Of a DNA stretch of 64,000 nt, positions 32,488 through 62,432 are shown one piece after another. The stretch covers positions 21,766 to 85,765 of the forward strand of contig CAVTUG010000001.1 in assembly GCA_963737865.1 (NCBI GenBank). Reading direction: 5' to 3'. Origin of the DNA: an uncultured Actinomycetota bacterium. GTDB taxonomy: Bacteria; Actinomycetota; Actinomycetes; Streptosporangiales; Streptosporangiaceae. The translations under genes were made by a program, and so were the position numbers. The notes beneath the pieces were generated by a model, which worked only from the letters and a program-made list of their open reading frames with translations, was not told where the DNA came from and ran no database searches. How positions within the stretch are numbered: the first letter of the stretch is position 1; every line of letters begins with the position of its first letter.

Positions 32488-35400
32488 GTGCTGAACGAGC
32501 GGGACGCCAGGCCGACTCCGCTTGACCGCTCGGGCTTGGCCTCCTTCGGGCAGGAGCAGCTCTGGCTCGTCGAGCAGGTCGTGCCTGGCACCTCGGTCAG
32601 CAACGACACCCGCGCGTGGGATCTGCATGGTCCGCTCGACAGCATCGCACTTCAGGCCGTCACTGACCAGTTAGTGGCCAGCCACGAAGCGCTGCGCACG
32701 TCGCTGCGCCACCAGGACGGACACCTCTGGCAGCAGGTCGGCCCGGCCGGACCTGCGGTGTTCGTGCACCGCTCCGCCGACAGCCCGGACGCCGCGGTCA
32801 CGATGCTGGGAGAATTCGTCGCTGCGCCCTTCGATTTAGCGGACGCGGCGCCGTTGAGAGCGATCCTGATCCGGATCCGGCCCGAGCATCACCTCTTCGC
32901 CATGGTCATTCACCATTCGGCCGGTGACGGGCAGTCCTGGGTGTGCCTTCGGGAGGAGCTTGCGAGCCGCTACGCCGCGCTCCTGGCCGGACGGCCAGTG
33001 CCGACGGCGGCAGCGGGTGCGGACTACCTGGATTTCGCCGAGCAGGAGCGGGCGCACTGGGCGGCGAACTCCGGTGCGGCGCAGGACTGGCTGGAAGGTC
33101 TGCGGAAGGCGGCCGGAAATTACGCGACGCTGCCGGCCGGCCAGTCCAGGGTGCTGGTGGCCGCCGCGCGGGCGCTGTCCTTCGATCTCCCGCAGCCCGC
33201 GCTCGACCGCCTCCTCAGCCGGGCGGCAGAGACGGCCTGCACCCCCAACATGGCCCTCACCGCACTATTCGCGGTCACCCTGAGCCGCTGGACGGGTCGC
33301 CCCAGGATCCTCTTCAGCTCCCCGGTCAGCTCCCGGCTCGATCCCCAGTTCCATCGCACGGTGGGAATGTTCGTCAACAGCATGCCGATGCTGCTGGACC
33401 TGACCGGCAATCCCGGCTTCGGCACGCTGCTGGGCCGGGCGCGAGCCGCCGTGCTGGACGGCTTAGCCCAGGTGCAGGTGCCGCCAGCTCAGATCCAGGC
33501 CGCGCTGGCCGACGGTGCACCAGCGACGGACCTGCTCCATCAGGTCACGCTGGCCGTAGAGCGGACCGGCCCTTCGCGGTTCACGATGGCCGACGTGACC
33601 GGAGTGGATCGCCGGCTTGTGCCACCGCAGACGATCTTCGGCCTTACCGCCCGAATCGAGCTGGGTGTCAGTCGCTCCCAGCTCTTCCTGTACTACGACC
33701 CCGCGATGCTCTCCGGCAGCGAAGCGGCCCGGTTCGGCGCCCACTTCACCGAGACGGTGGCCGTGGCGGCGCAGGCCCGCACGGCGGCGGACCTGCCAGC
33801 TGTCCCCGAGGTCGACCGGCGCCGGTTCCTTGACTGGTGCGCAGGTCCGCGCCGGAAGGACGCTGCCGGCCTGGTCGAGCGCATCGCGAGCCACACCCGT
33901 GAGCAGCCAGAGGCGCTCGCAGTCTGCGACGGGGAACAGCGACTCAGCTACCGAGCGCTCTGGACGGCGTCAGCGGCATATGCCCGGCGGCTGCGCGAAC
34001 TAGGCGTCGGGGCCGAGGACGTCGTAGGCGTCTGCCTGCCCCGCTCAGTCCGGCTGCCCGTGGCGATCCTCGCGATCCTGCTGGCCGGCGGCGCCTTCCT
34101 GCCGCTGGATCCGCGCAACCCGGCCGACCGGAACGCGACGCTGCTCACCGCCACGCGAGCCCGCGCCCTCGTCGCGGACCACGGCCCGGCGGCCGGCGAC
34201 TGGGACGGACCAGTGCTAGCCGGACCAGTGCCAGCCGGACCAGTGCTAGCCGGACCAGTGCTAGCCGGACCAGTGCTAGCCGGACCAGTGCTAGAGAGAC
34301 CAGTGCCAGCCGCAGCCCGGTCCGATGCCAGCTGGGACGGGCCACGCGTGCCGGCCGCCCCCTCGGCGCTGGCCTACATCATCCACACCTCCGGCTCCAC
34401 CGGTGCTCCCAAGGGTGTCATGGTCAGCCACCGAGGACTCGCCAACTACCTGCGCTGGGCCAGCGCCGCCTACGGCCTCGCTCCCGGTGGCGTGGTGCCA
34501 CTGCACACCTCACCCGCGTTCGACCTCGCGATCACCAGCCTCCTCGGCCCGCTCTACGCGGGCGCCGCGCTGCGGGTGCTGCCTGACACCGCAGGGCCGC
34601 TGGCCGTCGCCGAGCTACAGCCCGAGAACTACCAGATGGTGAAAGGGACGCCGAGCCACCTGATGGCACTGCACGACGCGGCGGATTCCGGCTGGTCCCA
34701 AAGAGCGCCGCAGGTGCTGGTCTTCGGCGGCGAGAACTGGCCGGCCGAGCACGCGCAGCGCTGGCGAGCCAGATTGCCCGGCTCGCTGCTGATCAACGAG
34801 TACGGGCCCACTGAGACGGTGGTCGGCTCGACCGCGTTCTCGGTGACCGGTCCGCTGGCCGGCACCCTGGTGCCGGTCGGAAGGCCGGTCGACAATACCC
34901 AGGCGTATGTCGTCGATGCCGAGCTTCCGGCTCGTGCCGGCCGGGGTGACCGGCGAGCTGGTGCTCGGCGGCGTCGGGGTGGCCAGGGGCTACCAAGGCG
35001 CGCCCGCCCTCACCGCTGAGCGGTTCGTGCCAGACCCGTTCAGCCCGGCGGGCGGCGAGCGCCTGTACCGCACCGGTGACCTGGCCCGCTGGAACGCCGA
35101 CGGCGAGCTGGAACTGACCGGACGTGCCGACGACCAGCTAAAGATCCTCGGGTACCGGGTGGAACCCGGTGAAGTGGAGGGCTGGCTGGCGCGCTGCCCC
35201 GGGGTCAGCCAGGCGGCCGTCATCGGCGACCGGAGACCAGACGGGAACCGGCTGGTGGCCTTTCTGGTGCCGGAGGCTGCGGCGGCGACGACCCTGCCCG
35301 AGGCTACCCTGCCCGGGGCGACCCGAGCCTGGCTCAGTCGCTGGCTTCCGCCGTATCTGGTGCCCGATCAGTTCGTGCTCCTGGATCGGATGCCGACGAC

Positions 35401-35716
35401 GGCGAGCGGAAAGCTGGACCGGTCCGCGCTGGTGCCGCCGCAGTCGCCGGCCACCGCTCCGAGTTCGGCTGGCCTGCCCACGAGGTGGCACGAGGTGATC
35501 CATGCCACCTGGTGCGAACTGCTCGGACGTGATCACATCGCGGCCGACCTCAACTTCTTCCAGGCTGGCGGGAACAGCCTGATGCTGATGCGGCTGCAGG
35601 CCGTGCTGCGCGAACAGGGGGTCAGCGGGCTGTCGCTTACCGAGTTCTTCCGGCTGGCCACCATCAACGACCTGGCGGCTCGGATCGACGCGTTGTCCAA
35701 GGGGATCTCGTCATGA
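32488..35716 (+). pseudogene. NRPS module C-A-T; frame broken near 34924-34928
   Basis: C domain: MVIHHSAGDGQS. A domain: LAYIIHTSGSTGAPKG and NEYGPTETVVG. After the shift it reads [45 protein letters not shown] and TTASGKLDR. T domain: FFQAGGNSLMLMRL. GTG 32488 is a tentative start. Confidence 0.85.
34207..34311 (+). repeat. Seven tandem copies of a 15-bp unit (ggaccagtgctagcc) inside the A domain, encoding (GPVLA)n
   Basis: The units are contiguous from 34207 with few substitutions. They translate to GPVLAGPVPAGPVLAGPVLAGPVLAGPVLERPVPA and lie between the A2-like LPLDP motif and the A3 motif. Confidence 0.9.
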
Positions 35717-37377
35717 AAACGCTTCCGATCTTTCCGGCCCAGCGCAGTCTGTGGATCGCCGAGCAGATGGGTACCGCTGGTGCCGCCATGCACGCGGAGC
35801 AGGCCGTCGAACTGGACGCCCCGGTGGACACCGGAGCGCTGTGCGAGGCGATCCAGGAAATCGTGCGCCGGCACGCGGCTCTCCGCACCACGTTCGCGCT
35901 GGCGGACGGCGAAATCTGGCAGCAGGTCCATCCGGACGCGGTGATCCCCGTGCCGGTCATCAACCTCGATCAAGCCGGCTCGGCCCGGCAGCCCGAGGGA
36001 TACTGGCTGCGCCACCCGCAGGTCCGGCCGATCATCGGTGCGCCGTTCGATCTCGCCAAGGACTTCCCTATCCGGGCGGGCCTGGTGAGGCTGCCAGCCG
36101 GGCGATTCGGCCTGCTCGTCGTCGTCCACCACATCGTCTCTGACCTGGCCTCCGCGCAGATTCTGAGGTCCGAGCTCACCGCTGTCTACGCGGCTTTCGC
36201 GCGCGGCGCACCGTCCCCGCTGCCTGCCTTGAGAGTCCCGTACGAAGAGCTGATGAGCCGGAATCGGCCCGCTGGCAATGCAGCCGAAAGCAGCCGGCGA
36301 AGCGCTACTGGGCACAGCGCCTCGCGGATCTCGCTGCGCCGATCGACCTAGCCTGCGGCGCGCCGAGGCCGAAGGTGCCGAGCCGTCAGGGTGCGGTACT
36401 GCGAACCGAGCTGACTGCGGCGCAGGTGCGCAAGGTGACCGCCTTCGCGCAGGCAGAGCACGTGAGCGTGTTCGCCGTCGCACTAGCGGCCTACTACCTC
36501 ACCCTGGCGGCCCACACCGGGCAGCGCGACCTGCTCGTGGCCGTCCCGAACCTGCAACGTGAGGACACGGCATCGGCCGACCACCTCGGATGTTTCCTCA
36601 ATATGCTTGTTCTCCGCGAGTCCGTGGTCGGTGCTGCCTCGCTGACGGAGTTCCTCGGGAACGTGTGGGACACGGTCATCGGAGCACTCGAGCATCGCGA
36701 GCTGCCGTTCGCCGAAGTAGTGGAGATCGCGTCGCCGCGCCGTTACCCCGGCTACCGTCCGCTGACGCAGGTTGGCTTCACCGTGGCCGAGGCTGAGTCC
36801 GGAGCGCTCGACTTCGGTCCGACCAGCGGCAAGATGCTGACCATCGACCGAGAGTGGATCGCGTACGACCTGATGGCGTCGGTGCAGCTCGCCGGGGAAT
36901 CGATGCTGATCTCCTTCGAGTACTGCCCTGCCGTCGTGCCGGAAGCTACGGCCGCGACCCTGCTGCGGAACTTCACCAGCATTCTGGGCCGGATGTGCGA
37001 GAGCACCGGGCTCCTGGTGCACGACCTGACAGCGGGAGGGGCGGACGCCGACCATCGCGCGGGAGCGCCAGCAACGCCCGTCGCAGCCATCACAGACAGC
37101 GGCCCGGATGGGCAGGAAGTGACCGGCGGCCCGGCGGCACTGTCGAAACTGGCGGCACTGTGGAAAGAGGTACTCGACGGAGTCGAGCCAGCGCCTGAGG
37201 ACGACTTCTTCCTGCTCGGCGGCCACTCGCTGGCCATGATCAACCTGATGATGCGCATCGACGAAGTGTTCGCCATCGAACTGCCACTCGACGACTTCCT
37301 GCAGCTGCCGACCCTGCGGGAGCAGGCCTGCAGTCGCCCGGCTGGCCATGGCCCCGGCCGGCGACGAGGAAGCGTGA
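35713..37377 (+). pseudogene. NRPS C-T didomain protein; frame broken near 36255 and again near 37329
   Basis: The C domain has MKTLPIFPAQRSLWIAEQ and VVHHIVSDLAS. The shifted frame reads RYWAQRLADLAAPIDL. The T domain has FFLLGGHSLAMINL. A third segment reads AVARLAMAPAGDEEA with the stop at 37375-37377, just before the next ATG. ATGA overlap at 35713-35716. Confidence 0.8.
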
Positions 37378-37381
37378 CCCC

Positions 37382-39247
37382 ATGTGCGGACTGGCCGGCG
37401 TGGCCGCGCTCCGGGGCGACGCGCCGGTACCCGAAGAGCTAGTGAACGCCATGGCGCAGGCGCTCGTTCACCGGGGCCCTGATGACGAGGGCTACTTCTG
37501 CGCGACCGGCATCGGGCTCGGCTTCCGCCGCCTGAGCATCGTGGATCTGACCTCCGGAGGTCAGCCGATGTTCAGCGAGGACGGGAACGTGGTGATGATC
37601 TGCAACGGCGAGATCTTCAACCACCGGGAGCTCCGGGATCGCCTCGTCGCCAGGAACCACGTGTTCCGCACCCACTGCGATGTCGAGGTCCTGGTCCATC
37701 TCTACGAGGACGAGGGGATGGGACTGCTCGGCCACGTGAACGGACAGTTCGCGTTCGCTCTCTACGACCAGGCCCGGAGGCAGCTGTTCCTGGTCCGCGA
37801 CCACCTGGGCATCCTGCCCCTTTACTACACGACCACGGCGGATCACCTGGTATTCGGATCGGAGATCAAGGCGATCTTGCGGCACCCGGACGTCAGCCCG
37901 GAGGTCGACCTGACGGGGCTCGATCAGATCCTGTCTTTCCCCGGCATCGTGAGCCCGCGCACCATGTTCCGCGGCATCCACGCGCTGGAGAACGGTGAGT
38001 ACCTGTCCTTACACGACGGTGCGATCGAACGGGTCCGCTACTGGGACCTAAACTACCCGCCGGACGGCGAGGCGCCCCCGAGCGCGGGCGAGGACTACTA
38101 CGCGGACACGCTGGCTGAGCTCCTGTCCCGGTCAGTGCGGCGCCGGCTGCGCGCGGACGTGCCTGTCGGCCTGTACCTGAGCGGCGGCCTTGACTCCTCG
38201 CTCATCGCGGCGCTGGCGAGCGAGGAAGCCGCTGGCGTCGACTCCTTCTCCATCGTGTTCCCCGGCGCGGCGATCGACGAGTCCGCCTATCAGCGGCTCA
38301 TGTCGGACGTCATCGGATCGCGTCATCACGAGAGCGAATGCGACATCGCCTATATCGCCGACCATCTGCAGCAGATGGTCTACCACGCCGAATGCCCGGT
38401 CAAGGAGACGTACAACACGTGCTCGCTCCGGCTGTCGGAGATGGCTCATGCGGCCGGCACCAAGGCTGTGCTGAGCGGGGAGGGCGCCGATGAGCTCTTC
38501 GGCGGCTACGCCGGCTACCGATTCGATCACTCGCGTCGCGGCCGGGACTTCCCGCAGCACAGTCTCGAGGCGGCGCTTGAGGGGGAAATCTCCCAGCGGT
38601 TGTGGGGCGATGCTGCCATCCGGTATGAGCGGAACTACCACGCCTGGCGCGAGACCAAGGCGGAGATCTACTCGGCGGAACTGGCCGCCTCGCTCGATGA
38701 CTTCGACTGCGCCGGCTTCCCGCTCGTCGACAAGAGCAAGCTGGCCGGCAGGCATCCCGTTCATCAGCGGTCCTACCTCGACGTGCGGCTGCGGCTCGCC
38801 GACCATCTGCTCGCCGACCACGGGGACCGGATGGCCCTTGCCCATTCCGTCGAGGTGCGTTACCCATTCCTGGACCGCGAGGTGGTCGAATTCGCTACGA
38901 CGATTCCGGCCGGCTTCAAGGTGAACGACCACGGCGAGAAGTACCTGCTGAAGCGGATGGCCTGCCGCCTTCTGCCCGCTCCCATCGTCGAGCGTGAGAA
39001 ATTCGGTTTCCGGGCTCCGTCCAGCCCGGCCCTGCTCAGACGCGATACCGAGTGGATCAACGACCTGCTGTCGCCGGCCAGGATCAAGCGCCAGGGTTAC
39101 TTCAACGTCGCCGTGGTCGAGCATCTGAAGAACGAGTTCCTGGCGGAAGGAGGCGATCTCCATCCTCATCTGAGCGACGACCTGCTCCTGGTCGTGCTGA
39201 CCTTCGGGATCTTGCTGGACACGTTCGGCCTGCCCGGCCATTCCTGA
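37382..39247 (+). CDS. asnB: Asparagine synthase (glutamine-hydrolysing) family amidotransferase
   Basis: The N-terminal MCGLAG carries the Cys2 nucleophile. It also has the SGGLDSS PP-loop motif. The 621-aa ORF is intact. Confidence 0.9.
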   Translation: MCGLAGVAALRGDAPVPEELVNAMAQALVHRGPDDEGYFCATGIGLGFRRLSIVDLTSGGQPMFSEDGNVVMICNGEIFNHRELRDRLVARNHVFRTHCDVEVLVHLYEDEGMGLLGHVNGQFAFALYDQARRQLFLVRDHLGILPLYYTTTADHLVFGSEIKAILRHPDVSPEVDLTGLDQILSFPGIVSPRTMFRGIHALENGEYLSLHDGAIERVRYWDLNYPPDGEAPPSAGEDYYADTLAELLSRSVRRRLRADVPVGLYLSGGLDSSLIAALASEEAAGVDSFSIVFPGAAIDESAYQRLMSDVIGSRHHESECDIAYIADHLQQMVYHAECPVKETYNTCSLRLSEMAHAAGTKAVLSGEGADELFGGYAGYRFDHSRRGRDFPQHSLEAALEGEISQRLWGDAAIRYERNYHAWRETKAEIYSAELAASLDDFDCAGFPLVDKSKLAGRHPVHQRSYLDVRLRLADHLLADHGDRMALAHSVEVRYPFLDREVVEFATTIPAGFKVNDHGEKYLLKRMACRLLPAPIVEREKFGFRAPSSPALLRRDTEWINDLLSPARIKRQGYFNVAVVEHLKNEFLAEGGDLHPHLSDDLLLVVLTFGILLDTFGLPGHS

Positions 39248-39281
39248 CCTTAGTCGCAAACGAGAGGGCCGCGATTTTCAG

Positions 39282-41109
39282 ATGAGCTTCGAGCCCATTC
39301 ATCACATGGTGGAGCGGACCGCCAGCCGATTTCCGGGCAGCGTGGCGATCGAGTCGCCGGAAGGCCAGCTCACGTATGCGCAACTCGAGGCCGGGGCGAA
39401 CCACCTGGCCCGGCAACTGCAGGCTGCGGGGGCCGGCCCGGGCTGCCTCGTGCCGATCGTCGCCGATGATCGCCGCGAGGTCGTCATCGCCGTCCTAGCC
39501 GCCCTGAAAGCCAGGGCGGTGTTCGCGCCGCTCGATCCGCACAGCCCCCGCGAACGGCTGGGGGGCATCCTGGACGGCTCGCACCGCGATGGGTGCTGCT
39601 CGGCGCGGGCAACCGGGCTCGCGACGCCGAGCTGGTGCAGCGGCACGCGCCGGCCGCGACGCAGGTCACGGTGGACCCGGCCGATCGCGGTAGTGGCCTG
39701 CCCGAGCCGACCCGGCCAGAGCCGGACGACGAGTGCTACGTGTTCTTCACCTCCGGCTCCACCGGCCGTCCCAAGGGCATCGTGGGCCGGCGAAGGCCGT
39801 GGACCACTACATCCGCTGGGAAACGGAGGCACTCGGCGTGGAACCCGGGTGGCGCTGCAGCCACCTCACCTCCCCGGCTTTCGACGCGATGCTCAGGGAC
39901 ATTTTCCTGCCGCTGTGCTCCGGAGGGACGATCTGCGTGCCGCCACCAGCCTCCGCCCTCGACGCGCACCAGCTCAGCAAGTGGATCGATGCCGAGAAGA
40001 TCAGCCTGGTGCACTGCGTCCCCGCCGTGTTCCGTGGCCTGGCGCGGGTGGCGGACTCGGCGCCGCAGGAATTCCGGGCGCTCCGCTGGATCGCTCTGGC
40101 GGGGGAGCAGCTCCCGCCCGATGACGTCCGCCGGTGGCTCGGCCGCTACGGGGAAAGGATCGGCCTGGTCAATCTCTACGGCCCGTCCGAGGCGACGATG
40201 ACGAAGACCTATCACTTTGTCACCCCCGCCGACGCCGGCCGGGACTCGGTCCCGATCGGGGTGCCCATACCGGACACCGAAGCGCTGCTCGTGGACAGCC
40301 GAGACCAGCTCTGCCGCGACGGCGAGATCGGCGAAATCTATCTGCGCACTCCGTACCTGACGCATGGCTACTACCGGCAGCCGGACGCGACGAGCCAGGT
40401 CTTCGTCCCGAACCCCGTCACCGGGGACCGCGTCGACATCGTCTACCGCACGGGGGACTTCGGCCGTCGGCTGGCCGACGGTGAGCTGGAGTTTCTCGGA
40501 CGCAAGGACCATCAGGTCAAGATCGGCGGAGTGCGGGTCGAACTGGAGGACGTGGAGCGCACGCTCCGCGAACTGCCAGCCGTGCGCGACGCCGCAGTGG
40601 CGCTCGACCAGTCTGGCGACGTCCCTTGCCTCTGCGCTTTCGTGGAGGCGGACGGCGAAGTTGACGAGGATCTCCTGCGGAGCAGGCTGCGCGCGCGGCT
40701 CCCGGTGGCTGCCATTCCAGCCTCGATCGTCGTCCTGGACCGGATCCCGCGCACCGTGAGCGGGAAGACCGACCGCCGGTCGCTGCCGCTCGGCCTGGCC
40801 AGGCGCGGTCGCGGGGACAGCGAGGGGACGAGGCCAGGCACGCCGACCGAGCGAGCTCTCGCCGGACTGCTTCACGAGCTGGCGCCCGCCGTGGCGGTGG
40901 ACGTCCGGGCGGATCTCCTCGACCTCGGCGCCAACTCGCTGCTGATCATGCAGCTCCTGCTCCGGCTCAACGATGACTTCGATCTCGAGGTCCCGCTTCA
41001 GACGTTCCTCGCCGCACCGACCCTGGCGGCGCTGGCGCGCTGGATCGACACCGAGGCGCGGGACGAGGACCATGCGCTCGACCGATTGCAGCGACATGCC
41101 ACGACCTGA
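39282..41109 (+). pseudogene. NRPS A-T didomain protein; frame broken near 39581 and near 39790
   Basis: It uses three frames. The first has TYAQLEAGANHLARQL and FAPLDP. The second has WVLLGAGNRA and CYVFFTSGSTGRPKGIVG. The third has AKAVDHYIRWE, NLYGPSEATM, YRTGDFGRR, GRKDHQVKIGGVRVELEDVE, VSGKTDR and the T motif LGANSLLIMQL. Confidence 0.85.
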
Positions 41110-42025
41110 GCGGACCCCCGGGGCCTACGTGTCCGCCATCGGATTCGCGGTCGGGGAGGCTGTCGCCCTGCAGGAGCTGAGCGATCCGGGGATCATGGCC
41201 GAGCTGGCCAGCCTCCACAAAGACGGGCTGCGCGAATGCCGGGTCGCGAGCTGCGGCCGGGCGTCGCTGGCCGCCGCCGCCGCGCGGCAGAGCGTTGGTG
41301 ACGAAACCCGGCCAAGGCCCAGCGCAGTGGTCTACTGCACGGACACCGTCAGCGACTCGCCGACCTTCGAGGCGCAGCGGCTGCTGGCGGCCATGTCCGG
41401 ACCGCCAGGTCACGTCGTCATGGTCGGCGGAAACGCCTGCGCGAACTTCGGATCGGGGCTGCAGCTCGCCATGGCCTGGCTCGCGGCAAGCCAGGCCGAA
41501 TCGGTGCTCCTGGTGACGTCCGACGAGGTGATCAAGGGGTCTCGCTACCTCGCAAGCGGCCGGACGGTGCTCAGCGACAGCGCCGCGTCGTGCCTGGTCT
41601 CGGCCAGTCCGGTCGGCCCTAGCTTCAGGGTGCTCGGGATGTCCTCCGGAGGCGGGCCCGCATCGGAGTCCGATCTTGCCGGAAATCAGGCGCTGCGGCA
41701 GACCGCGGCGGGAGTGGAGCAGACGGTCCGCGCCGCGCTCGCGGCTGCGGGCAGGCAGGCGTCGGATTGCCGGTACATCCTGACCGGGAATCTCGGCGGC
41801 ACGCTCCGAGGCTTCCTGGCCATGGCGGCCGGATTCAGGCCGGCCAAGGTCTATGCCCACGGTGGCGAGACGCTGGCACATTGCTTCGCCGCCGACATCC
41901 TGATCGCCCTGCGCGCCGTTGTAGCGGACGAGCTGGTGGCCCCGGGTGACCTGGTCATGCTGCTGCCCACTAGCCCAGTCTCGTGGTCGGCGATCGTAGT
42001 GGAATATGTGCCTGGGTCATCCTGA
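41096..42025 (+). CDS. KAS III (FabH)-like condensing enzyme
   Basis: It has the candidate active-site Cys in GGNACANFGSGLQLAMAW. The ~310-aa size and thiolase-like layout fit the family. ATG 41096 overlaps the end of the A-T gene. Confidence 0.6.
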   Translation: MPRPERTPGAYVSAIGFAVGEAVALQELSDPGIMAELASLHKDGLRECRVASCGRASLAAAAARQSVGDETRPRPSAVVYCTDTVSDSPTFEAQRLLAAMSGPPGHVVMVGGNACANFGSGLQLAMAWLAASQAESVLLVTSDEVIKGSRYLASGRTVLSDSAASCLVSASPVGPSFRVLGMSSGGGPASESDLAGNQALRQTAAGVEQTVRAALAAAGRQASDCRYILTGNLGGTLRGFLAMAAGFRPAKVYAHGGETLAHCFAADILIALRAVVADELVAPGDLVMLLPTSPVSWSAIVVEYVPGSS

Positions 42026-43779: not shown

Positions 43780-44061
43780 ATGTCAGACGCCGATCGGCTG
43801 CGTGATCAGCAGGTCATCCGGATGATCGTAAGCCAGCTCGCTCCGGTCAATATCGATGGCCTCACGGCGGAAGCCCGCCTTATCGAGGATCTCGGTTACC
43901 ATTCGCTAGCGCTTCTCGAACTCGCATTCGCGCTCGAGGACGAGTTCGGCCTCCCGCCGCTGGATGAGGAGACGGCGCGGAAGATTCGCACTGTCCGGGA
44001 CGTGGAGGACTTGGTTGCACAACGGCTGTCGACAGCAGAACGCAGCGCTGACGCAAGCTGA
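43780..44061 (+). CDS. Free-standing acyl/peptidyl carrier protein
   Basis: About 93 aa. It has the phosphopantetheine-site context IEDLGYHSLALLELAFALEDEFG. Confidence 0.8.
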   Translation: MSDADRLRDQQVIRMIVSQLAPVNIDGLTAEARLIEDLGYHSLALLELAFALEDEFGLPPLDEETARKIRTVRDVEDLVAQRLSTAERSADAS

Positions 44062-53233: not shown

Positions 53234-54184
53234 TCAGATGTCACCTTTCTCAGGTCGGCCGGACCAGTCATGATCACGCCATCCCGGTGGCTGATTCCAC
53301 TCCGTCCAGCCGAATCCCGTTCTCCCGTCGGCGACCTCGAAGCGGCAAAGTGCCCGTGGAAAGTGGCCAACCTGACCTTCAGGCGAGGTCAGGCCCACCG
53401 GCGCGAAACTTATTGGCACGGCAGTCATGCGCATCGTGCCGAGCTGGATCGCCGATCGCTGCGGGAACTGATCAGGGCCGAAGGTGGTCGCCGCCGAGAA
53501 GCCGCTCAGTCGCCTGAGCTGACCTTCGGGCGTCACCGCGAATGACGGCGGGATCAGCGGTGCGTTGTTGGCCTGCATCCCATGAAACGCGGTGCCGTCG
53601 CCAATTCGGCCGGCCGACCACAGCCAGGAGGTCGTCCACCAGTCGCGCACGCCCCAGCTGTGATCGCGTTCGCCCCATCCGTTTACCGTCAGTCGATCAG
53701 CACCGATCCGAACGGTTCCGGCGACCTGGCACGGAATCTCATAGCGCGGAACCATGCGGTACGGATAGACGCCACCGAAAGTCACCCATTCCAGGTCCAG
53801 TTCCAGCCGAACCGGCGAGAAGGCGGCCAGGTCGCCGTACCCGGCGGCTGGTTCCTCCAGCACCACCGCAGTAGCTTCGAGCCTGACGTGAGCCGACTCC
53901 AGCGGGCCGGTGACTTCCTGGGCGGCGGAAATGGACTCGGTTTCTACCGAGGTACCGCGCGGCCACGGAACCGCGTTGTCGACTACGAGCGCCGTCGGCT
54001 GTCCAGGACGGACCGCGCACGCCCAGTACCAGCAGCGCCCCCACGTCGGATACAGGCCCAGCCGCACGTAGCCGGCGACCGATCCGTCCGAGGCCGCGAA
54101 GTCGAAGTAGTACGACTCGTTCCACAGCAGCTCCGATCCAGGCGGATGAAGCTGCTCGTCCTCCCGGGTCAGCCGCCAGGTCAT
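53234..54184 (-). CDS. Conserved hypothetical protein (about 316 aa), translationally coupled within the NRPS operon
   Basis: ATG 54184 overlaps the upstream stop (ATGA). The sequence (LWNESYYFDFAASDG, GWGERDHSWGVRDWW) looks like a soluble beta-rich enzyme. The ORF-track entry extends to 54433 through the upstream gene. Confidence 0.5.
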   Translation of the reverse strand: MTWRLTREDEQLHPPGSELLWNESYYFDFAASDGSVAGYVRLGLYPTWGRCWYWACAVRPGQPTALVVDNAVPWPRGTSVETESISAAQEVTGPLESAHVRLEATAVVLEEPAAGYGDLAAFSPVRLELDLEWVTFGGVYPYRMVPRYEIPCQVAGTVRIGADRLTVNGWGERDHSWGVRDWWTTSWLWSAGRIGDGTAFHGMQANNAPLIPPSFAVTPEGQLRRLSGFSAATTFGPDQFPQRSAIQLGTMRMTAVPISFAPVGLTSPEGQVGHFPRALCRFEVADGRTGFGWTEWNQPPGWRDHDWSGRPEKGDI

Positions 54185-55917
54185 GGCACGCTCTTCGCGG
54201 CCCGTGCCGAGGCGATGGCGTCCGCTTCCCGCGCGCCCCCCACCTGGCTGTCGATTACTGCGAGCAGCCGCACGAGCGTCCGTGCCTCGAACAGCGCGTC
54301 GACTGGCACGGGGACCTTGAACAGCATGCGCAGCTTGCCTATCACCCGAACCGCGGCGAGCGAATCCCCGCCCGCGCGGAAGAAGTCTTCCCTGGCGGTG
54401 GCAGGTGGCCGTCCCAGGGCCTCGGTCCACCACTCCCGCAGGACCTGGGCCGCCGGGCGGCAGAAAAGATCAGCCTCAGCCGCCGGGCCGGCCTGTTCCA
54501 GGGCCGGGCCGGCGCCATTGACGGGCGCCGCATCCGATTCCCGGGCGGACTCTGCTGTGTCTGCTGGCTCGGTGCCCGTGCCGCTGGCATGCCACTGCGC
54601 CGCGCCCAGCCGGCCTACTTCACGGCCGAGCCCGTCGGCGAGCCCGGCAAGCACCGCCTCGAAGCGGCCAAGCAGCGTGGCGATCATCTCGGCGGTGAAC
54701 AAGGCTGGCAGGTACAGCAACTGGAGCCGGGACCTCGGGTGCCGGGGAAGGACGGTCAGAGTCAGCGGGAATCCGGCGTCCTCGATGACCTCGCGGATCC
54801 TGAGCCGCAGCCCATCGCCAAGATCGAACTCGGGGTTCTCGTCCGGATAGTTCTCGAACACGACGATGCTGTCGAACAGCGGGGCCGTTGCGGGCAGTCC
54901 CGCGAATCTCGCCAGGTCCGCCAGGCCCGCGTGCTGGTGCGGGAGCGTGTCGAGATAGTCGCGCTGAACCTCCCGCAAGAAGGCGCCGACCTCCGCCGCG
55001 TCGTCGACACCGATCCGGCGCGGGATGGTGTTGATGAACACCCCGACCATGTCAGCGATGCCGGGAAGCTCGGCTGGCCGCCCCGACACCGCCGCGCCGA
55101 AGACCACGTCGTCCGAACCCGCGTGCCGGGCGAGCAGGACTGACCAGGCCGCGTAGAACACGGTACTGAGAGTGACGCGGGCCTGCCGCGCCGCAGCCGC
55201 CAGGGCCGTGCTCAGCTCGGAGCTGAGGTCGAGGTACGCCCGTCCCGCCGACACCTCGCCCGCCCGCTCTGCCTCTGGTCCCGGAGTCCGCAGCCGCAGC
55301 GGAGCAGGCCGGATCCCCGCCAGCCGCTGCCGCCAGAAGGTCTCGAGCGCCGGGGTCTGATTCTGGCCGAGCCAGCTCACGTAGTCCCGGAACGGCCGGG
55401 GCTCTGGCAGTGCGGGCGCCGAGCCTTCAGCGCAGGCCCGGTAGTGGGCGGCGACTTCGGCGATCGTGATCGGCATGGACCAGCCGTCCATGATCAGGTG
55501 ATGCAAGGTCCAGACGACGACACAGCCCCGATCGCTGGCAAGGATCGTGTGCCGCATCAGAGGCGCGGCTGCCAGCGCGATCCCGCGATCGCGGTCCTCG
55601 GTGAGGAACTGCTGCACCGCAGCCTCCACCTGATCCTGCTCTAGGTCCTTCAGGTCACGGCACTCGACCTGGACGGCGCACTCGTCCATCACGATCTGCA
55701 GCGGCTCGTCGACGCCTTCCCAGACAAAGGCGGTGCGAAGGGCGGGATGCCGCCGGACCACGGCCGTCCAGGCGGCCGCCAGGCGCTCCGGGTCGGGCGT
55801 CCGGTCCGCCTCGAAGACGAACTGCTCGATGTAGGGGCCGGGCCGGTCCTCCTTGACGACATGGAACAAGATTCCGGCCTGCATCGGGGTGAGCGGATAG
55901 ATATCCTGGATGTTCAA
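54181..55917 (-). CDS. NRPS C-T didomain protein
   Basis: It has DIYPLTPMQAGILFH, the HHxxxDG motif TLHHLIMDGWS and the C-terminal T motif FFRAGGDSLAAVRV. The TTG start overlaps the upstream stop. Confidence 0.85.
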   Translation of the reverse strand: MNIQDIYPLTPMQAGILFHVVKEDRPGPYIEQFVFEADRTPDPERLAAAWTAVVRRHPALRTAFVWEGVDEPLQIVMDECAVQVECRDLKDLEQDQVEAAVQQFLTEDRDRGIALAAAPLMRHTILASDRGCVVVWTLHHLIMDGWSMPITIAEVAAHYRACAEGSAPALPEPRPFRDYVSWLGQNQTPALETFWRQRLAGIRPAPLRLRTPGPEAERAGEVSAGRAYLDLSSELSTALAAAARQARVTLSTVFYAAWSVLLARHAGSDDVVFGAAVSGRPAELPGIADMVGVFINTIPRRIGVDDAAEVGAFLREVQRDYLDTLPHQHAGLADLARFAGLPATAPLFDSIVVFENYPDENPEFDLGDGLRLRIREVIEDAGFPLTLTVLPRHPRSRLQLLYLPALFTAEMIATLLGRFEAVLAGLADGLGREVGRLGAAQWHASGTGTEPADTAESARESDAAPVNGAGPALEQAGPAAEADLFCRPAAQVLREWWTEALGRPPATAREDFFRAGGDSLAAVRVIGKLRMLFKVPVPVDALFEARTLVRLLAVIDSQVGGAREADAIASARAAKSVP

Positions 55918-57482
55918 GTTCGCTCCGTCTCAACCGCGGCAGCCACGGCGTCGCGGTCGGCCTTGCCGCTGGGCGTCTTCGGGAGGCTGCCGAGCACGGT
56001 CACCGACAACGGCACCGAGACCTCGGGGAGCACCTCGGCGAGTTGGCGCCGGACGGCCTCTTCGTCGATTCGGTGCAGCGGGTCCTTGAGCGTGACCCCG
56101 GCGCGGAGCGCGCGCGGCATCCCGTTCCCGCCCGTGATGACGGCGACGGCCGCCGAGATCTCGCCTAGGGCGAGCAACTGGGCCTCGACCTCGGTCAGGC
56201 TGATCCGGACGCCTCGGAGCTTCACGTCGTCGTCGATCCGGGCCAGCATCTGCACCCGGCCCCCTTCGAACCGCACGAGGTCGCCGGTGCGGAACGCCCG
56301 GGTATTTCCGTGCCCGGTCTCCTCGATCTGGATATACCGGCGCGCGTTGAGTTCGGGCTGTCCCAGATAGCCAAGCGCCAGCGGCGTGCCGGCGACGAGA
56401 AGCTCACCCTCTGCGTCGCTGCCTTCCTCCGCATCGATAAGGAGCTCGCACCCTGGCAGCGGGATTCCGATGGGCGGCAGCGTCGGCCAGTCGCCGACGG
56501 AATCGGGCAGGACGTGGTAGGTGACCATCGCCGATTCGCTCTGCCCGTAGTGGTTCACCAGCCGGCATCCGGCCGCGCGCTTGAAGAAGGACGTGATCTC
56601 GTCGGTGCGGACGAGCTGCTCGCCGGCGACGTTGATTTCCCTGAGCGCCAGCGATTCCACCGGGCCGTCAAATCCCCCGGCCACGGCGAGCATCTGCAGC
56701 GCCACGTACGGGAGGAAGAGCCGCTCGATTTCGTTGCCGACGAGCCAGTCGAGCAACCCGAGCGAGTCGCGCCGCAGGGATTCCGGTATGACGACCAGCG
56801 TGCCGCCGGCGCCGAGCGTTCCGAAGATCTCCTGGAACGACACGTCGAAGTTGAGCGGCGCGAATTGCGCTGTGCGGAGGTCGGGCGCGGCCGACGCCGC
56901 AGCCTGCCATTCGACGACGTTGTCGAGACAGCTGTGCGGTAGTTCCACGCCCTTGGGCCAGCCGGTGGAACCCGAGGTGTAAATAACGTAGACCGCTAGA
57001 TCAGGGTCGTGATCAGTCAGCCAGGACTGGTCATCGCCGTCAGGATCGAAGTCCGGGGCGGGGTCCGGACGCACCAGCGGGATGCGGATCAGGTCATCGC
57101 CCAGGCCGCGATCGGCGCCGTCGCAGAGCACGACCTCGGTCGCGCTGTCCCTGAGCATGTGCTCAAGCCGGGCCCTCGGGTACTCCAGGTCGAGTGGGAC
57201 GTAGGTCCGGCCGGACAGCGTGACTGCCAGCATCGCGGCCACGGCGCCGGCGCCGCGCGGGCAGGCGATGCCGACGCGGCCCCCTCGCTGACTGCCGCAG
57301 CGATCCAGGTCGCCCGCGATGTGCGCCGCCCACCGCATCAGCTCCCCGTAGGTCAGGGTGAGATCGCCGTCCACCAGTGCGACAGCAGCAGCGTTTCGGC
57401 TGGCGACGTCGGCCAGGGTCGGGACGAGACACGGCGGGTCAGCCGGTCCGCCCCATAGGGATCGGGCGTAGTCGATGGTCAT
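55914..57482 (-). CDS. Stand-alone NRPS adenylation domain
   Basis: It has VYVIYTSGSTGWPKGV, NHYGQSESAM, FRTGDLVRF, ARIDDDVKLRGVRISLTEVE and KTPSGKADR. 522 aa with no carrier domain. Confidence 0.85.
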   Translation of the reverse strand: MTIDYARSLWGGPADPPCLVPTLADVASRNAAAVALVDGDLTLTYGELMRWAAHIAGDLDRCGSQRGGRVGIACPRGAGAVAAMLAVTLSGRTYVPLDLEYPRARLEHMLRDSATEVVLCDGADRGLGDDLIRIPLVRPDPAPDFDPDGDDQSWLTDHDPDLAVYVIYTSGSTGWPKGVELPHSCLDNVVEWQAAASAAPDLRTAQFAPLNFDVSFQEIFGTLGAGGTLVVIPESLRRDSLGLLDWLVGNEIERLFLPYVALQMLAVAGGFDGPVESLALREINVAGEQLVRTDEITSFFKRAAGCRLVNHYGQSESAMVTYHVLPDSVGDWPTLPPIGIPLPGCELLIDAEEGSDAEGELLVAGTPLALGYLGQPELNARRYIQIEETGHGNTRAFRTGDLVRFEGGRVQMLARIDDDVKLRGVRISLTEVEAQLLALGEISAAVAVITGGNGMPRALRAGVTLKDPLHRIDEEAVRRQLAEVLPEVSVPLSVTVLGSLPKTPSGKADRDAVAAAVETERT

Positions 57483-57526: not shown

Positions 57527-59032
57527 TCAGGCACCGAGGGTCAGCTGCTGCAGGCGTCCGGGCTCAGCCTCGGCTTCGAGGAAGCTGCGGCAGATCCGGG
57601 CAGCGACCTCCTCGACGGACGCGGCCCGCTCGCGGCCGGCGGGAGTGTTCACCTGGTCGGTCAGCACCAGGCCAGGACGCACCACGAAGCAGCTGATCCC
57701 CGGATACGTGGTCGCGGTCCAGTGCGCGAGACCCTCGACTGCCGCCTTCGCCGCCACGTAGTGCGGCCATTCCGCAGGAGGAGCGTCCAGAGCCGCCGAA
57801 GACACCGTGAGGCAGCGGCCGTGCGAGCGTTCTAAGGCGGCCGCCAGCCCGGACAGCGGCACGCCGACGAGATCCAGAGCCCTGGCTGTGTAGCTGCCGA
57901 TCCGCAGCGAGCCCTCCGGGGTGAAGACGGCGGTGCCGATCGGCGGCGCCGCGCTCAGGATGAGATAGTCCAGCCGCCCGCCGTGGTCGGCTAGTCGCCT
58001 GAGCACCGCTGCCGGCCACTGCGCTGTCGATGCGTCTCCGATGACCGAGAGCAGCTCACCCCGCCCGGTCAGCTGCTGGCTCACCGGAGCGAGGGCGCCG
58101 GCCTCCCGGTGTCCGACCAGAACCCGGCAGCCCTGCCCGGCCAGGGCGAGCGCAAGGCCCGCTCCAAGCCCGCGCGAACCGCCGACCACGACGGCGCTGC
58201 GACCGGCGAGCCGCTGCGAAGGGGCCAGCACCCGGTCGATCGACGCCAGCGAGGGAATCGGCGCCGGCGCGCAGACCATGGCGTCGAGCTCGACCTCGGC
58301 GACCACTGACTCGCCGGCGAGCAACTGCCCCTGGACCGTCACCAGACCGAACCGATCATCGACGTCGACGACCCGCGCCGTGTAGCGGAGTGCGTCCCTG
58401 CGGGTCACCGGATACACCTGCAGCCGGACTCGGCACAGCAGCCCGTGCCGGCCAGGAAGGTCCATGCCGGCCACATAGCTGGCCCATGCCATCGCGGTGA
58501 TCCAGCCCGTCCCCAGCCCGCGCACGGCCCTCGGCCATCGTCGGGCCAGTTCCGCGCCGGCTGCTTCGCTCGGCGCGTATCCGCCGGACGCCTCGGCATC
58601 GCCCGTCAGCCCTGCCAGGGCTCGATCGGCCCGCCCGGCTGGGCTATCGCCCGGCCCGTCCAGCGTTCTCGGCACGGCAGCGCCGCCGGCGAGCGAGATG
58701 CGCAGGCACCGGTAAGGGCCATCGGAGACGGTAAGCCGGGCGGTGGCGGTGGACGACACGTCATACGACGTGTCAGGGAACAGCGGGCGGGGAAACTGCA
58801 CTTCCAGTTCACGCAGTTCCGCGACCTCGAGCGGGATTTCGTCGAGCGCGGCGATGCAGCCGAGCATGCCATGAGCGATCGGCTCGCCGAATGGAGTGCG
58901 GCGCGCGAACGACTCAGACAGATGCATCGGGTTGGCGTCTCCGCTGAACCGGCGGAACGCTTCAACATCGTCTTTTGTCAAGCGCACTGAAGACTCCCGC
59001 CAATATCTCGACCCGGCGCGCTGAATTAGCAT
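57527..59032 (-). CDS. Fusion of MaoC-like (hot-dog) dehydratase domain(s) with a short-chain dehydrogenase/reductase
   Basis: The N-terminal [29 protein letters not shown] marks the MaoC domain. A second hot-dog-like segment follows. The C-terminal part has [18 protein letters not shown] and [11 protein letters not shown] (YxxxK). The start may be an internal GTG. Confidence 0.75.
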
Positions 59033-59135: not shown

Positions 59136-62100
59136 ATGGCGCGTGAACTCCGTCGAGCTCAGGATATTCTTAGCGCCGTCAGCGGAGGCCGACCGCGAGA
59201 TACCGACTCGCCTGCCGATGGCAGTGCTCACTCAGATGGCACGGCTCACTCAGATGGCACGGTCCGGTCAATCGTCATCGAGGTTTTCAAAGATATCCTG
59301 GGAATCGATGACGTCGACCCTGATGCGCCTTTCGGCCGTCTAGGCGGGGAATCACTGCTCGCGGTCCGGATCCTGTCGCGCTGCCGCCGCGCGCTCGGCG
59401 TGGAGCTTCCGCTGCGCTCACTGGGGTCGGCGGTGACATTGAGCCAGTTCGTCGTCGCCGTTCGGCAAGCGCAGGACACGCGGTGCACCGCGCGCGCCGA
59501 AGAACCCGCAGCCGACAGTGCGACCTTCCCGCTGCCGGCTGGAACGGCCTCGCTGGTGAGCCTGCACGCGCTGGACCCCGATTCACCCTTGTACAGCGTT
59601 GCCATGAAACTCGTCCTGACCGGTCCGCTCGATCCGAATCGGCTCCGCGCGGCGGTGACCGCCCTGGTGCGGCGGCACGAGGCGCTCGGGCTGACCTTCC
59701 TGCTCGTGGAGGGGCATATCACCGCGCGGATCGCCGCAGACCCGGTCGTCGACTACGAGGTGATCGACGCTTCCGGGCCGGACGGGACAGCAGCACGCCT
59801 GATCCGGGGCATCACCCTGCGGCCACTCGACCTCGAGCGGTCGCCGCTGCGCGTCCGCCTGGTCGCCGAGTCAGCGCAGCGCCATCACCTGATCCTGGTG
59901 GTGCATCACGCGGTCTGCGACGGACTGTCCGTGCGGATTCTCCAGCGCGACCTGCTGACCCTGTACCGCGACGGGAGCGATGCCGCCCTGCCCCGGCTCG
60001 AAGCCGGGGTGGCTGAACTCGCGCGCCGCGAGGCCTGGCTGACTCCCGAGCGGCAGGCCGAGCTGGCCGGCCGATGGCGCGGGAGGCTTGCCGGCGCGCC
60101 GGACGTCCTGCGGCTGCCGATGGAGGGCGGCCGCCCCGCCCGCCCGTCGCTGCGGGGGCGGCGCGCGGAGCTGCGCGTGCCAGCGGATCTGCACGGCCGG
60201 GTCCAGGACCTGGCGGCGTCCCTCGGAGTCTCGGTCTTCAGCGTCCTGCTCGGCGCGCTGGCCTCCATGCTCCGCCGCTACGGCGGGCAGCCGGACATCG
60301 TCATCGGCATCCCGGTCGCGGGGCGCGCCGATCCTGACAGCCAGGATGTGGTGGCCAATCTCGCCCGGATGATCCCGATCCGGCTGACCGTAGCCGACCG
60401 GACCGCCGCCGCTGATCTGGTCATCGGCGCCCAGGAGGCGATCTTGTCCGCGCGGGAGGACGCCGACCTGGCCTTCGCCGCCATCGTCGAGGCGGTGCGC
60501 CCGCGCCGCGCGGCGAGCCACCATCCCTTGTTCCAGGTCGCGCTCACGCTGCTGACCGGGTCGGACGAGCGCGTGGAGGTGCCGGGCCTGGACATCACGC
60601 GTCATGATCTCGACACCGCGACCTCCAAGTTCGATATGACCTGGTTGCTGCAGGAGGCGGACGGCGCCTTGGAAGGCCACGTCGAGTACGCCTCGGACCT
60701 GTTCCCACTGGTGCTTGTCGAGCAGATGGCGGGAAACCTGACCGCGATCCTGGACGCGATGGCGCGCCACTCCGCCACGACGGTCGAGCGGCTCGCCCTG
60801 TTCAGCGGACCGGAGCGGCGCCGGCTTCTCGACGAGCTGCACGGCGGAACTGACGGCGAGTGGCTCGCCATCGGTGACCTGGTGCAGCGGCATGCGGCCG
60901 AACGCCCCGACCATCCTGCCCTGTGGCACGAGGGGCGCGAGACGTCCTACGGCGAGCTCGACGCGGCCGCGAACCGCCTGGCCGCGCGGCTGGCCGCAGC
61001 CCGGATCGGCCCCGAGGACGTGGTGGGGGTGTGCGTCGAACGTTCTCCGGCGCAGCTCATCTCCGTCCTTGCGGTGCTGAAAGCGGGTGCCGGGTACCTG
61101 CCGCTGGATCCGGCCGGTCCGGCGGAGCGGCTGACCGGCATCGTGGCCGCCTCAGGGGCGGTCTGCGTCCTCGCCACGGCCGCGAGCCGGGCCATGCTGC
61201 CGACGCTCCGGCCGGGGCTCACCGTGCTCGACATCGACGACCGCGCAGACACCGGCACCGCCGCAGCTCCGGCGAGCCGGCCGGCCGCGAGCCAGCTGGC
61301 CTGCGTCAGCTATGCGTGCGACGCGACGGGGCAGGGCAAGGGCATCCAGCTCACCCACGCGGGCCTGGCGAACCTGGTGAAGAGCACGGGCCTGGCCTTC
61401 GGGCTGGGCCAGGACACCCGGGTACTCCAACTCGGCGCTCTGGACTGCGACGCCGCGGTCTGGGCGACGTTCACGGCTCTGAGCTGGGGTGCCACCTTGT
61501 GCCTGGCGCCCGCGAACGTCGCCGGCGACGATCGCTGCGTCGAGGAGGCGATCCGGGCTTGCGGCGCCACGCTGGTCTATCTTCCGCCGGCCCTGCTCTC
61601 CGTCGTCGATCCGGGACGAGTGCCCAGCGTGCGCCTGGTGGTCACGGGCGGCGACCGGATCTCCGCCGGGCTGCGTGACCGCTGGCTCGCACGGTGCCGG
61701 CTCGTCACGGCGTACGGCGCCACCGAAGGCACCATCTTCGACGCCTGGCAGGAGCGGTCAAGCGACGAGCCGGGGAATGACGATCTCCCGATCGGCAGGC
61801 CGATCACGAACGTGCAGCTCTACGTCCTGGACGGGGCGCTGGAGCCGGTGCCACCTGGCACGGTGGGCGAGGTCTACGTAGCCGGTGTCGCCGCCGCTCG
61901 CGGGTACCTGGGCCGGCCCGGCCTGACCGCTGGCCGGTTCGTCCCCGATCCGCACGCCACCCGAGCCGGGATGCGGATGTACCGGACCGGCGATCTGGTG
62001 CGCCGCGAGCTGTCAGGTCAGCTGCGGTGGGCCGGGCGCGTCGACCGTCAGGTGAAGATCGGCGGGTACCGCGTCGAACCGGGCGAGATCGAGGCTGCCC

Positions 62101-62432
62101 TGCTGGAACTGCCTGGCGTGCGGGAAGTCCTGGTGACCGCCGAAGCCGGATCGTCGGGAGCCGCGCGGCTGATGGCCTACGTCGCCGCGACCTCATCGGA
62201 GCAGCCGGGCCTGGAACGGCACTGGCGCGACCGGATGACAGCTCGCCTGCCCGGCCACCTGGTGCCGGCGCGGATCTTCCCGGTGCCGGCGTTCCCGCTG
62301 ACCGCCGACGGGGAAGTCGACCTCGCCATGCTGAGCGTCCTGGCGAGGATGCGGCGAGCTGAGCGGCGAGCCTTGCTGGCGCGGGTGGAATCGGCGGCCG
62401 GGACGACCATGACGGCCCGGGAGCAGGCGTGA
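59136..62432 (+). CDS. NRPS T-C-A protein whose A domain has degenerate A3 and A10 core motifs
   Basis: T domain: [15 protein letters not shown] domain: [12 protein letters not shown] domain: [31 protein letters not shown] and [14 protein letters not shown]. However, A3 reads [16 protein letters not shown] and A10 reads LTADGEVD (Glu in place of Lys). No downstream T domain. The ORF is open from 59043. Confidence 0.8.

Follow-up and report, generated by a model that had tools for sequence, protein, structure and literature searches.

A conserved, dissociated non-ribosomal peptide synthetase gene cluster with candidate trans-loading cassettes in an uncultured actinomycete

Introduction

The subject of this work is a gene cluster for a peptide synthetase of the non-ribosomal type (NRPS) in an uncultured actinomycete of the family Streptosporangiaceae (assembly GCA_963737865.1; 7.56 Mb, 68% G+C, 12 contigs). 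The stretch of DNA that we analyzed, called the window throughout, comprises 64,000 nucleotides of contig CAVTUG010000001.1 (positions 21,766 to 85,765; G000:C1:21766-85765 in our own numbering) and carries the condensation (C), adenylation (A) and carrier (T) domains of this NRPS on many small, separate genes. With a probability of roughly 65% we read the genes between ~30.2 kb and a point ~6 kb past the right edge of the window as one biosynthetic gene cluster (BGC), encoding a non-linear, dissociated NRPS that would make an acylated, glycerate-containing short peptide. The window proteins were annotated by Pfam and NCBIfam scans and a further 20 kb 3' of the right edge was fetched (L001; other loci and contigs are likewise labelled with L and a number). 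The cluster genes from 30.2 kb to an arabinofuranosidase gene past the edge were scanned, all of them with Pfam and most of them with NCBIfam.

Results and Discussion

Domain content of the cluster

An original prediction, made from the window alone, had counted five C, four A and six T domains on eight genes, and Pfam found every one of these domain strings at its place. They are listed here in window positions, together with the neighbouring genes that enter into the assembly line proposed below.

32488..35716, plus strand: NRPS 1, C1-A-T1 (Condensation 1.5e-48, AMP-binding 2.6e-62, PP-binding 1e-12)
35713..37442, plus strand: NRPS 2, C2-T2, without an A domain (Pfam)
37382..39247, plus strand: AsnB-type glutamine amidotransferase (TIGR01536: 464 bits, cut-off 267)
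39282..41109, plus strand: NRPS 3, A-T3, with the code DARHAALMTK and two frameshifts (Pfam)
41072..42025, plus strand: KASIII-like thiolase-fold protein (weak ACP_syn_III matches)
43780..44061, plus strand: stand-alone carrier T4, acyl carrier protein (ACP)-like, motif DLGYHSL (PP-binding 2.7e-07)
44058..45347, plus strand: stand-alone C3, HHIVTDGWS (Condensation 1.7e-44)
51202..53184, minus strand: fatty acyl-AMP ligase (FAAL; best NCBIfam match the FAAL model with 293 bits, under the model's own cut-off)
54181..55917, minus strand: C4-T5, HHLIMDGWS (Condensation 3.1e-90, PP-binding; 75% identity to the L098 ortholog)
55914..57482, minus strand: stand-alone A with the Pro-like code DVQFNAHMVK (Pfam)
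59136..62432, plus strand: T6-C5-A*, where A* is a degenerate A domain (Pfam)
62429..64000, on to 64060 past the window, plus strand: FkbH-type glyceryl loader (TIGR01686: 257.5 bits, cut-off 146.65)

The five HHxxxD motifs of the C domains read exactly as first quoted and are located at 32902-32937 (MVIHHSAGDGQS), 36118-36153 (VVVHHIVSDLAS), 44448-44483 (IVIHHIVTDGWS), 55477-55512 (WTLHHLIMDGWS) and, in T6-C5-A*, at 59895-59930. The E (epimerization) domains in the genome and in 1.39 Mb of related loci were too few to label DCL references in an internal tree, where ester-forming C domains could not be labelled either, and the PDB neighbours of the C domains (Txo1/2, fuscachelin PCP-C) do not separate the subtypes. 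All four A domains of the window are of the NRPS type, but the original count had left out a fifth adenylating enzyme, the FAAL. Likewise, the statement that E, thioesterase (TE), heterocyclization (Cy) and methyltransferase (MT) domains are missing holds for integrated domains in the window, but a discrete methyltransferase is encoded at 42827-43600 and an E domain lies just past the right edge, where the cluster continues for ~6 kb with the following genes.

3' of FkbH, past the right edge: stand-alone A whose code, DFWNIGMVHK, is the canonical one for Thr
L001:1809-2093 (window-equivalent ~65809-66093), just 5' of the halogenase: carrier T7, 92 amino acids (aa), motif DLGATSL
L001:2099-3046: SyrB2-type halogenase (TIGR01762, 434.8 bits against a cut-off of 226.3)
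3' of the halogenase: alpha/beta hydrolase, 407 aa, nucleophile elbow GLCGG
3' of the hydrolase: T-E didomain with carrier T8, called T-C by Pfam, with the motifs HHLVVDGVS, EGHGRE, RTVGWFT and FNYLG

The T-E gene is followed by a gene of no assigned family and by one MFS and one GNAT gene; the arabinofuranosidase gene behind them is taken as the end of the cluster. T7 is masked by a longer off-frame open reading frame (ORF) that adds ~106 Arg-rich residues to the halogenase ORF, and length-ranked ORF lists miss it. In total the cluster holds five C domains, eight carriers (six in the window and two past it), four intact A domains, the dead A*, one E domain and no TE. The codes of the intact A domains are Asn-like (DLTKVGEVG(K), NRPS 1), DARHAALMTK with a basic pocket, Pro-like and Thr. 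A TE-terminated module was looked for downstream and none was found past the right edge; the thioesterase family PF00975 gave no match within ~250 kb of the cluster, and no MbtH gene was detected in or near it.

Conservation of the gene order

Relatives of the cluster are present on two Logan contigs (L095 and L096) and on a JGI contig of 26 kb (L098), with 65–86% protein identity, the same gene order and separate intact ORFs. In the relatives the intact orthologs of the C-A-T, C-T, AsnB and A-T genes encode 1057, 563, 621 and 609 aa, respectively (the C-A-T, C-T and A-T values being those of L095), and the KASIII-like protein, the LmbU regulator, T, C, the MFS exporter, the NovG regulator and the FAAL are also encoded by separate intact ORFs in the relatives. 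The AsnB protein, which in the relatives is always encoded between the C-T and A-T genes, shows 86% identity to its L095 ortholog, T4 shows 70% identity to the L095 and L096 orthologs, and orthologs of the Pro-like A domain with 61–84% identity and the same code were found in L015, L016 and L098. Furthermore, Lentzea, Mangrovihabitans and metagenome contigs likewise encode A and C-T, and T-C-A and FkbH, by genes of their own. Orthologs from the same genus were sought in 40 relatives, where the best match was only 38% identical. Because the relatives carry the same genes as separate intact ORFs, the gene split is genuine: the dissociated layout is conserved, and frame correction mends genes and fuses none of them. 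Fusion into multimodular synthetases was looked for and not found, so that the original idea of a dissociated assembly line depending on contacts in trans is borne out.

The comparison also bears on the question whether two or more independent small pathways lie here side by side, namely a left arm from C-A-T to C and a right arm from FAAL to T-E. A core of MaoC-SDR, T-C-A, FkbH, A, C-T and methyltransferase genes is also found in Lentzea, Mangrovihabitans and Micromonospora, where no left arm lies within 10 kb of it, and in the window a repeat-rich non-coding island of ~1.4 kb (49.0–50.4 kb) lies between the arms. However, in L095 and L098 alike the left arm, the regulator, FAAL, C-T and A follow one another without a break and in this same order, and L098 has the left-arm genes together with FAAL, C-T and A on its single 26-kb contig. 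A distant Streptomyces has both trans-loading cassettes described below on one contig, the JGI sample 3300078620 contains a T-C-A-family contig as well as a KASIII-family contig, and the numbers of carriers and C domains balance only with the arms taken together. Separate pathways are therefore unlikely in our view, and we continue with a single cluster.

Frameshifts and the quality of the assembly

Four single-base frameshifts are located in three genes of the window, each of them inside a gene: one near 34924 in NRPS 1, one within 36298-36374 in NRPS 2 (the core motif C3 of which reads HHIVSDL) and two at ~39577-39590 and 39772-39795 in A-T3. A fifth one is present past the right edge, where the N-terminus of the Thr-type A domain is in another frame. 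Four frameshifts in a 9-kb stretch of NRPS genes, with one more in the gene for the Thr-type A domain, could mean that the cluster is a decaying, non-functional remnant, and the degenerate A3 and A10 motifs of A*, a 100-aa insert in the FAAL without counterpart in the orthologs, the absence of a racemase that all relatives possess and the CTG start of C3 point in the same direction. Since rpoB and rpoC are intact, a decay specific to the cluster was first suggested.

This suggestion was overturned by a count over the whole genome with a codon-potential detector, which reports a same-strand frame change of a coding segment without a stop. It gave 544 frame-switch candidates, corresponding to 7.2 per 100 kb and distributed over all 12 contigs, against 1.0 per 100 kb in the controls (1.39 Mb of high-G+C, NRPS-rich loci from other assemblies), which is a ~7-fold higher rate. 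The genome contains many other NRPS C domains that are broken up in this manner, and the marker completeness is only 86% despite an assembly of 12 contigs. The broken genes show 64–80% identity to the intact orthologs in every frame segment, keep their motifs and have no internal stops; the A3 motif of the A-T gene (YVFFTSGSTGRPKG) is intact in the middle frame. Because of the genome-wide excess, the split C domains elsewhere, the low completeness and the orthology of each segment, assembly indels are much the likelier cause of the frameshifts in the window. Thus, broken genes in this indel-rich assembly should not be called pseudogenes without the reads.

For the stand-alone C3, no ATG, GTG or TTG is present in any frame at 44040-44100. 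A CTG at 44058, which overlaps the stop of T4 as CTGA, is its probable start; in the relatives a 73-bp spacer and a GTG start precede the stand-alone C, and the L096 ortholog has 440 aa. The FAAL insert of ~100 aa is in frame, consists of 15-bp repeats (51824-52123) and is missing in the orthologs of 537–559 aa. A similar 15-bp array is found in frame in the A domain of NRPS 1 (34206-34312, 7 x 15 bp), and another one in the P450 gene (47700-47764). A period of 15 is by far the commonest tandem-repeat period in the whole genome (667 of 3030 arrays found by TRF, followed by 18 with 376 and 21 with 197), and 291 period-15 arrays with at least 3.5 copies and unrelated unit sequences are spread over all contigs. 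Because this period dominates the whole genome, the arrays are a genome-wide habit and not a property of the cluster, and it seems that duplications of 15 bp, in frame, are produced by some process at work in this lineage.

The dead A domain of T6-C5-A* has a degenerate A3 P-loop, and Glu replaces the A10 Lys. A sister protein (P0002, 68–70% identity) is degenerate in the same two motifs but with other residues, with the rest of the domain being conserved, and this degeneracy was seen only in the window and in P0002. Orthologs with 45–49% identity from Lentzea, Mangrovihabitans and two metagenomes keep YTSGSTGRPKG and NGK. By its sequence A* looks like a catalytically dead domain that is retained as a structural scaffold, and the pattern in P0002 speaks against decay as its origin. 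Taking these findings together with the frameshift count and the genome-wide arrays, we regard a non-functional remnant as improbable. With A* the cluster has two acceptors without a functional A domain, T-C-A*, which has lost A3 and A10, and C2-T2, which has no A domain at all.

The halogenase cassette

The genes past the right edge form a cassette of A, T, SyrB2-type halogenase, Cys hydrolase and T-E, which is shared by L099, L100 and the present cluster, with T-E also being present in L017. The halogenase aligns with SyrB2 (2FCT) with E=2.8e-135 and 454 bits over 307 residues, and its DWHQADTFA corresponds to H116-x-A118 of SyrB2, so that H-x-A in place of H-x-D/E is kept. It is unusually close to SyrB2 from Pseudomonas syringae for such distant hosts, which suggests a horizontal spread of the A-T-halogenase-hydrolase cassette. 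In the alpha/beta hydrolase, Cys226, His377 and Asp348/349 are invariant among 15 homologs from at least six genera. Because of its GLCGG elbow with the invariant Cys and its place in the A-T-halogenase-hydrolase-T-E cassette, we read the hydrolase as a candidate SyrC/CmaE-type aminoacyl shuttle. The earlier suggestion that an alpha/beta hydrolase could release the chain as a thioesterase was rejected in favour of this role.

The AsnB/A-T/KASIII-like cassette

A second cassette, composed of C-T, AsnB, A-T, an Asp/Glu racemase in the relatives and the KASIII-like gene, was found in L095, L096, L098, two JGI contigs and a Streptomyces (L097). The Streptomyces contig JBITIY010000010 carries it ~25 kb apart from the halogenase cassette (L099). 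The racemase gene lies between the A-T and KASIII-like genes in all relatives (L095:9283-10008) and is absent from the window (corresponding place 41109-41111). The code DARHAALMTK, with Arg and His at pocket positions, suggests an acidic substrate for A-T3.

The KASIII-like protein has few kin, with 251 of 1.84 billion representatives matching at E<=1e-10, and shows an invariant Cys123, Asn240 and His270 (alignment A2). A PDB search with its sequence gave no match. Its predicted structure (pTM 0.81) has ChlB3 as the best PDB fold match (E=1.2e-17, TM 0.77), followed by DpsC and FabH. ChlB3 is an ACP-to-ACP transferase, and from the structure prediction the KASIII-like protein is a candidate carrier-to-carrier acyl or aminoacyl transferase. 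As in the ChlB3/DpsC/CerJ group, a predicted thiolase fold with a conserved Cys is found in the KASIII-like protein, but the identity is only ~20%, it is encoded next to AsnB and to the A-T and A-less C-T proteins of an NRPS in place of a polyketide synthase (PKS), and the substrate would be an aminoacyl group.

As a speculative and less probable reading, this cassette may be a second, so far undescribed trans-loading unit, in which an acidic (D-)amino acid on A-T would be amidated by AsnB and carried to the A-less C-T by a thiolase-fold Cys enzyme and not by a SyrC-type hydrolase. If this is true, one assembly line would use two mechanistically different aminoacyl shuttles.

A different role for the KASIII-like enzyme would be a tetronate- or butenolide-like condensation of a glyceryl-S-carrier with the finished chain, which would release the chain and explain the missing TE. 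The cluster does combine FkbH with a FabH-like enzyme and with an alpha/beta hydrolase and lacks a TE, and in the Streptomyces locus L097 the KASIII cassette has genes for a 2-oxoacid_dh acyltransferase and for part of an FkbH-like protein next to it. However, the needed beta-ketoacyl thioester has no source in the cluster, where neither a ketosynthase nor a PKS module was found, the KASIII-like gene always adjoins AsnB/A-T/C-T and not FkbH, and the hydrolase belongs to the halogenase cassette. With no PKS in the cluster we rejected this reading as very improbable, and we keep to the KASIII-like protein as a candidate shuttle.

Further genes of the cluster

A third cassette, a MaoC-SDR gene divergent from T-C-A / FkbH together with A (DVQFNAHMVK), C-T and a methyltransferase, is found in Lentzea, Mangrovihabitans and a JGI contig, where the pairing of MaoC-SDR with a divergent T-C-A gene is conserved. 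In the window, FkbH overlaps the stop of T-C-A* as GTGA, and C4-T5 is translationally coupled to the A gene upstream of it. The remaining genes of the cluster are the following.

30209..31066, plus strand: TesB-like hot-dog acyl-CoA thioesterase (Pfam 4HBT_3 and 4HBT_3C; weak tesB match)
31113..32432, minus strand: FAD-dependent monooxygenase (FAD_binding_3 1.2e-23), divergent from the first NRPS gene
42176..42577, plus strand: LmbU-family transcriptional regulator (NF038070 1.2e-35), conserved in L095 and L098
42827..43600, plus strand: discrete SAM-dependent methyltransferase (Methyltransf_25, Methyltransf_11)
45344..46435, plus strand: APH/EcKL-type kinase (APH 8.9e-17), assigned to tailoring or self-resistance
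46451..47656, plus strand: MFS exporter (MFS_3, MFS_1; 74% identity to the L095 ortholog)
47666..48970, plus strand: cytochrome P450, with the 15-bp array mentioned above
50445..51275, plus strand: NovG/StrR-like regulator (weak HTH matches)
53234..54433, minus strand: DUF7064/DUF7065 protein (Pfam)
57527..59032, minus strand: MaoC dehydratase fused to an SDR reductase (Pfam)

The TesB-like gene is a possible left edge of the cluster, and the same FAD monooxygenase gene stands at the same position in L095. The place of the methyltransferase is taken in the relatives by an N-oxygenase together with an FMN-binding protein, and homologs of the methyltransferase (50–56% identity) adjoin T-C-A genes in L016, L017 and L098. 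An ortholog of the NovG/StrR-like regulator with 77% identity matches PF27534 NovG_helical. The DUF7064/DUF7065 gene probably has its true start 3' of position 54181, where the C-T gene stops, and a PDB sequence search found no relative of its product. The non-coding island between the arms (49000-50400) is dense in repeats of 44 bp and 19 bp, and its long palindrome recurs at 26467-26587.

Proposed assembly line

The cluster offers six loaders, namely the FAAL, FkbH and the four live A domains. As T3 on the A-T protein and T7 look like off-line tailoring carriers, T4, T6, T8, T1, T2 and T5 would be the on-line carriers, and six carriers together with five C domains would fit a chain of six units. 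T4 and T6 are each encoded directly upstream of a C domain, and T4 is translationally coupled to C3.

In our model the FAAL would load a fatty acyl group onto the ACP-like T4 and FkbH would load glycerate onto T6. The stand-alone C3 would then join the acyl and the glyceryl group as in the initiation of vioprolide biosynthesis, perhaps by formation of an ester. C5 would pass the acyl-glyceryl unit to T8 of the T-E protein, which would represent the missing half of the C5-A* module. Because A* is dead, T8 would have to be filled in trans: the Thr A domain would load T7, the halogenase would chlorinate Thr there and the Cys hydrolase would move Thr or chloro-Thr from T7 to T8, where the E domain of T-E would epimerize the residue. 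In a similar way A-T3 would feed the A-less C2-T2 once its tethered residue, which is probably acidic, had been amidated by AsnB, perhaps with the KASIII-like enzyme as the shuttle. C1-A(Asn)-T1 and the Pro-like A together with C4-T5 would supply the other residues; listing these middle modules so implies no order.

The chain may be released by the TesB-like thioesterase, by the KASIII-like enzyme or through the chemistry of the chloro-Thr end. MaoC-SDR may process the glyceryl unit or act on the fatty acyl group; for the lactate starter of bryostatin a DH-KR pair is thought to process a glyceryl unit. The product may contain 4-chlorothreonine or a derivative of it and an acyl-glycerate cap.

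Several points weigh against this model. The carriers were assigned by adjacency and counting, and no release enzyme was identified in the cluster. The cluster is a mosaic, as the MaoC-SDR/T-C-A/FkbH/A/C-T core has other partners in Lentzea and Mangrovihabitans, and its parts could work independently. The Cys hydrolase was likened to SyrC, CmaE and CysB by its motif and its cassette, and ChlB3, DpsC and ordinary FabH came out nearly equal in the fold search, so that the predicted structure lends the shuttle role of the KASIII-like protein weak support. Finally, the five frameshifts, the FAAL insert of 100 aa, the missing racemase and the CTG start could mean a loss of function.

Comparison with known systems

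Among known systems, the closest logic is that of syringomycin, cystobactamid and the vioprolide-type initiation with FAAL and FkbH and not that of pacidamycin. The likeness to pacidamycin noted in the original prediction extends to fragmentation only, as many mono- and didomain proteins meeting in trans are shared with the pacidamycin-type uridyl-peptide and the andrimid-type NRPS. Genes for nucleoside modification, for diaminobutyrate (DABA) or of the tRNA-dependent or transglutaminase type were not found among the annotated cluster genes, with three ORFs being without any match. The surplus of C and T over A domains, from which, together with the stand-alone pieces and the amidotransferase, extensive in-trans interactions had been predicted, is real but has a simpler cause in the two non-A loaders FAAL and FkbH, the dead A domain and the two candidate shuttles.

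With SyrB1/SyrB2/SyrC/SyrE module 9 of syringomycin biosynthesis in Pseudomonas syringae and with thr1-thr4 of Streptomyces, the cluster shares a Thr-specific A domain (DFWNIGMVHK here), a carrier for a SyrB2-type Fe/alpha-ketoglutarate halogenase with H-x-A kept, an alpha/beta hydrolase with a Cys nucleophile and an acceptor module without a working A domain. The SyrB1/SyrB2/SyrC/SyrE system is also cited in the study on cystobactamid (PMC7966384). In contrast to syringomycin, A and carrier are separate proteins here, as is also the case for thr1/thr2, there is no TE and the host is an actinomycete. Furthermore, the acceptor is a split C-A*(dead) ... T-E, whereas that of syringomycin is C-T-TE.

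In cystobactamid biosynthesis module 3 of CysK has an A domain without the A10 Lys. This domain is bypassed, as the SyrC/CmaE homolog CysB carries the tailored residue from CysH (PMC7966384). An on-line module with an A domain that has lost the A10 lysine is thus common to CysH/CysJ/CysB/CysK module 3 and the present cluster. In cystobactamid this module is filled in trans from a stand-alone module, on which the residue is tailored before a SyrC/CmaE-like shuttle moves it, and the same is proposed here. The tailoring differs, being done by an AMDH domain in cystobactamid and, as proposed, by halogenation here, with the AsnB amidotransferase being part of the other cassette. In addition, the dead A domain here has also lost the A3 P-loop and its carrier is located on the separate T-E protein.

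In vioprolide biosynthesis an FkbH domain stands in for an A domain, together with a FAAL and an ester-forming C domain (PMC8949500). As in the initiation of vioprolide and cystomanamide, a FAAL accompanies the C and T domains of the NRPS here, and FkbH, the glyceryl loader, takes over from an A domain. Unlike there, all parts are discrete proteins here, FkbH follows the dead A domain and MaoC-SDR is a conserved neighbour.

In the literature that we searched, we found no characterized cluster with FkbH, AsnB and KASIII, no described cluster with the whole gene set, no match for the A-domain specificity codes and no published function for the AsnB/A-T/KASIII-like cassette.

Conclusion

In summary we have described a dissociated NRPS cluster that is real and conserved in several actinomycetes, the product of which would be lipopeptide-like. 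The cluster belongs to a known class, the non-linear NRPS with trans loading, and of its parts the AsnB/A-T/KASIII-like cassette has the best prospect of novelty. It provides a compact and conserved example of an NRPS built from small parts, in which a dead A domain would serve as a scaffold with its carrier on another protein. Furthermore, it combines two non-A loaders, FAAL and FkbH, with two candidate carrier-to-carrier shuttles. As all of these parts are single small genes, the proposed hand-overs would be directly testable in vitro.

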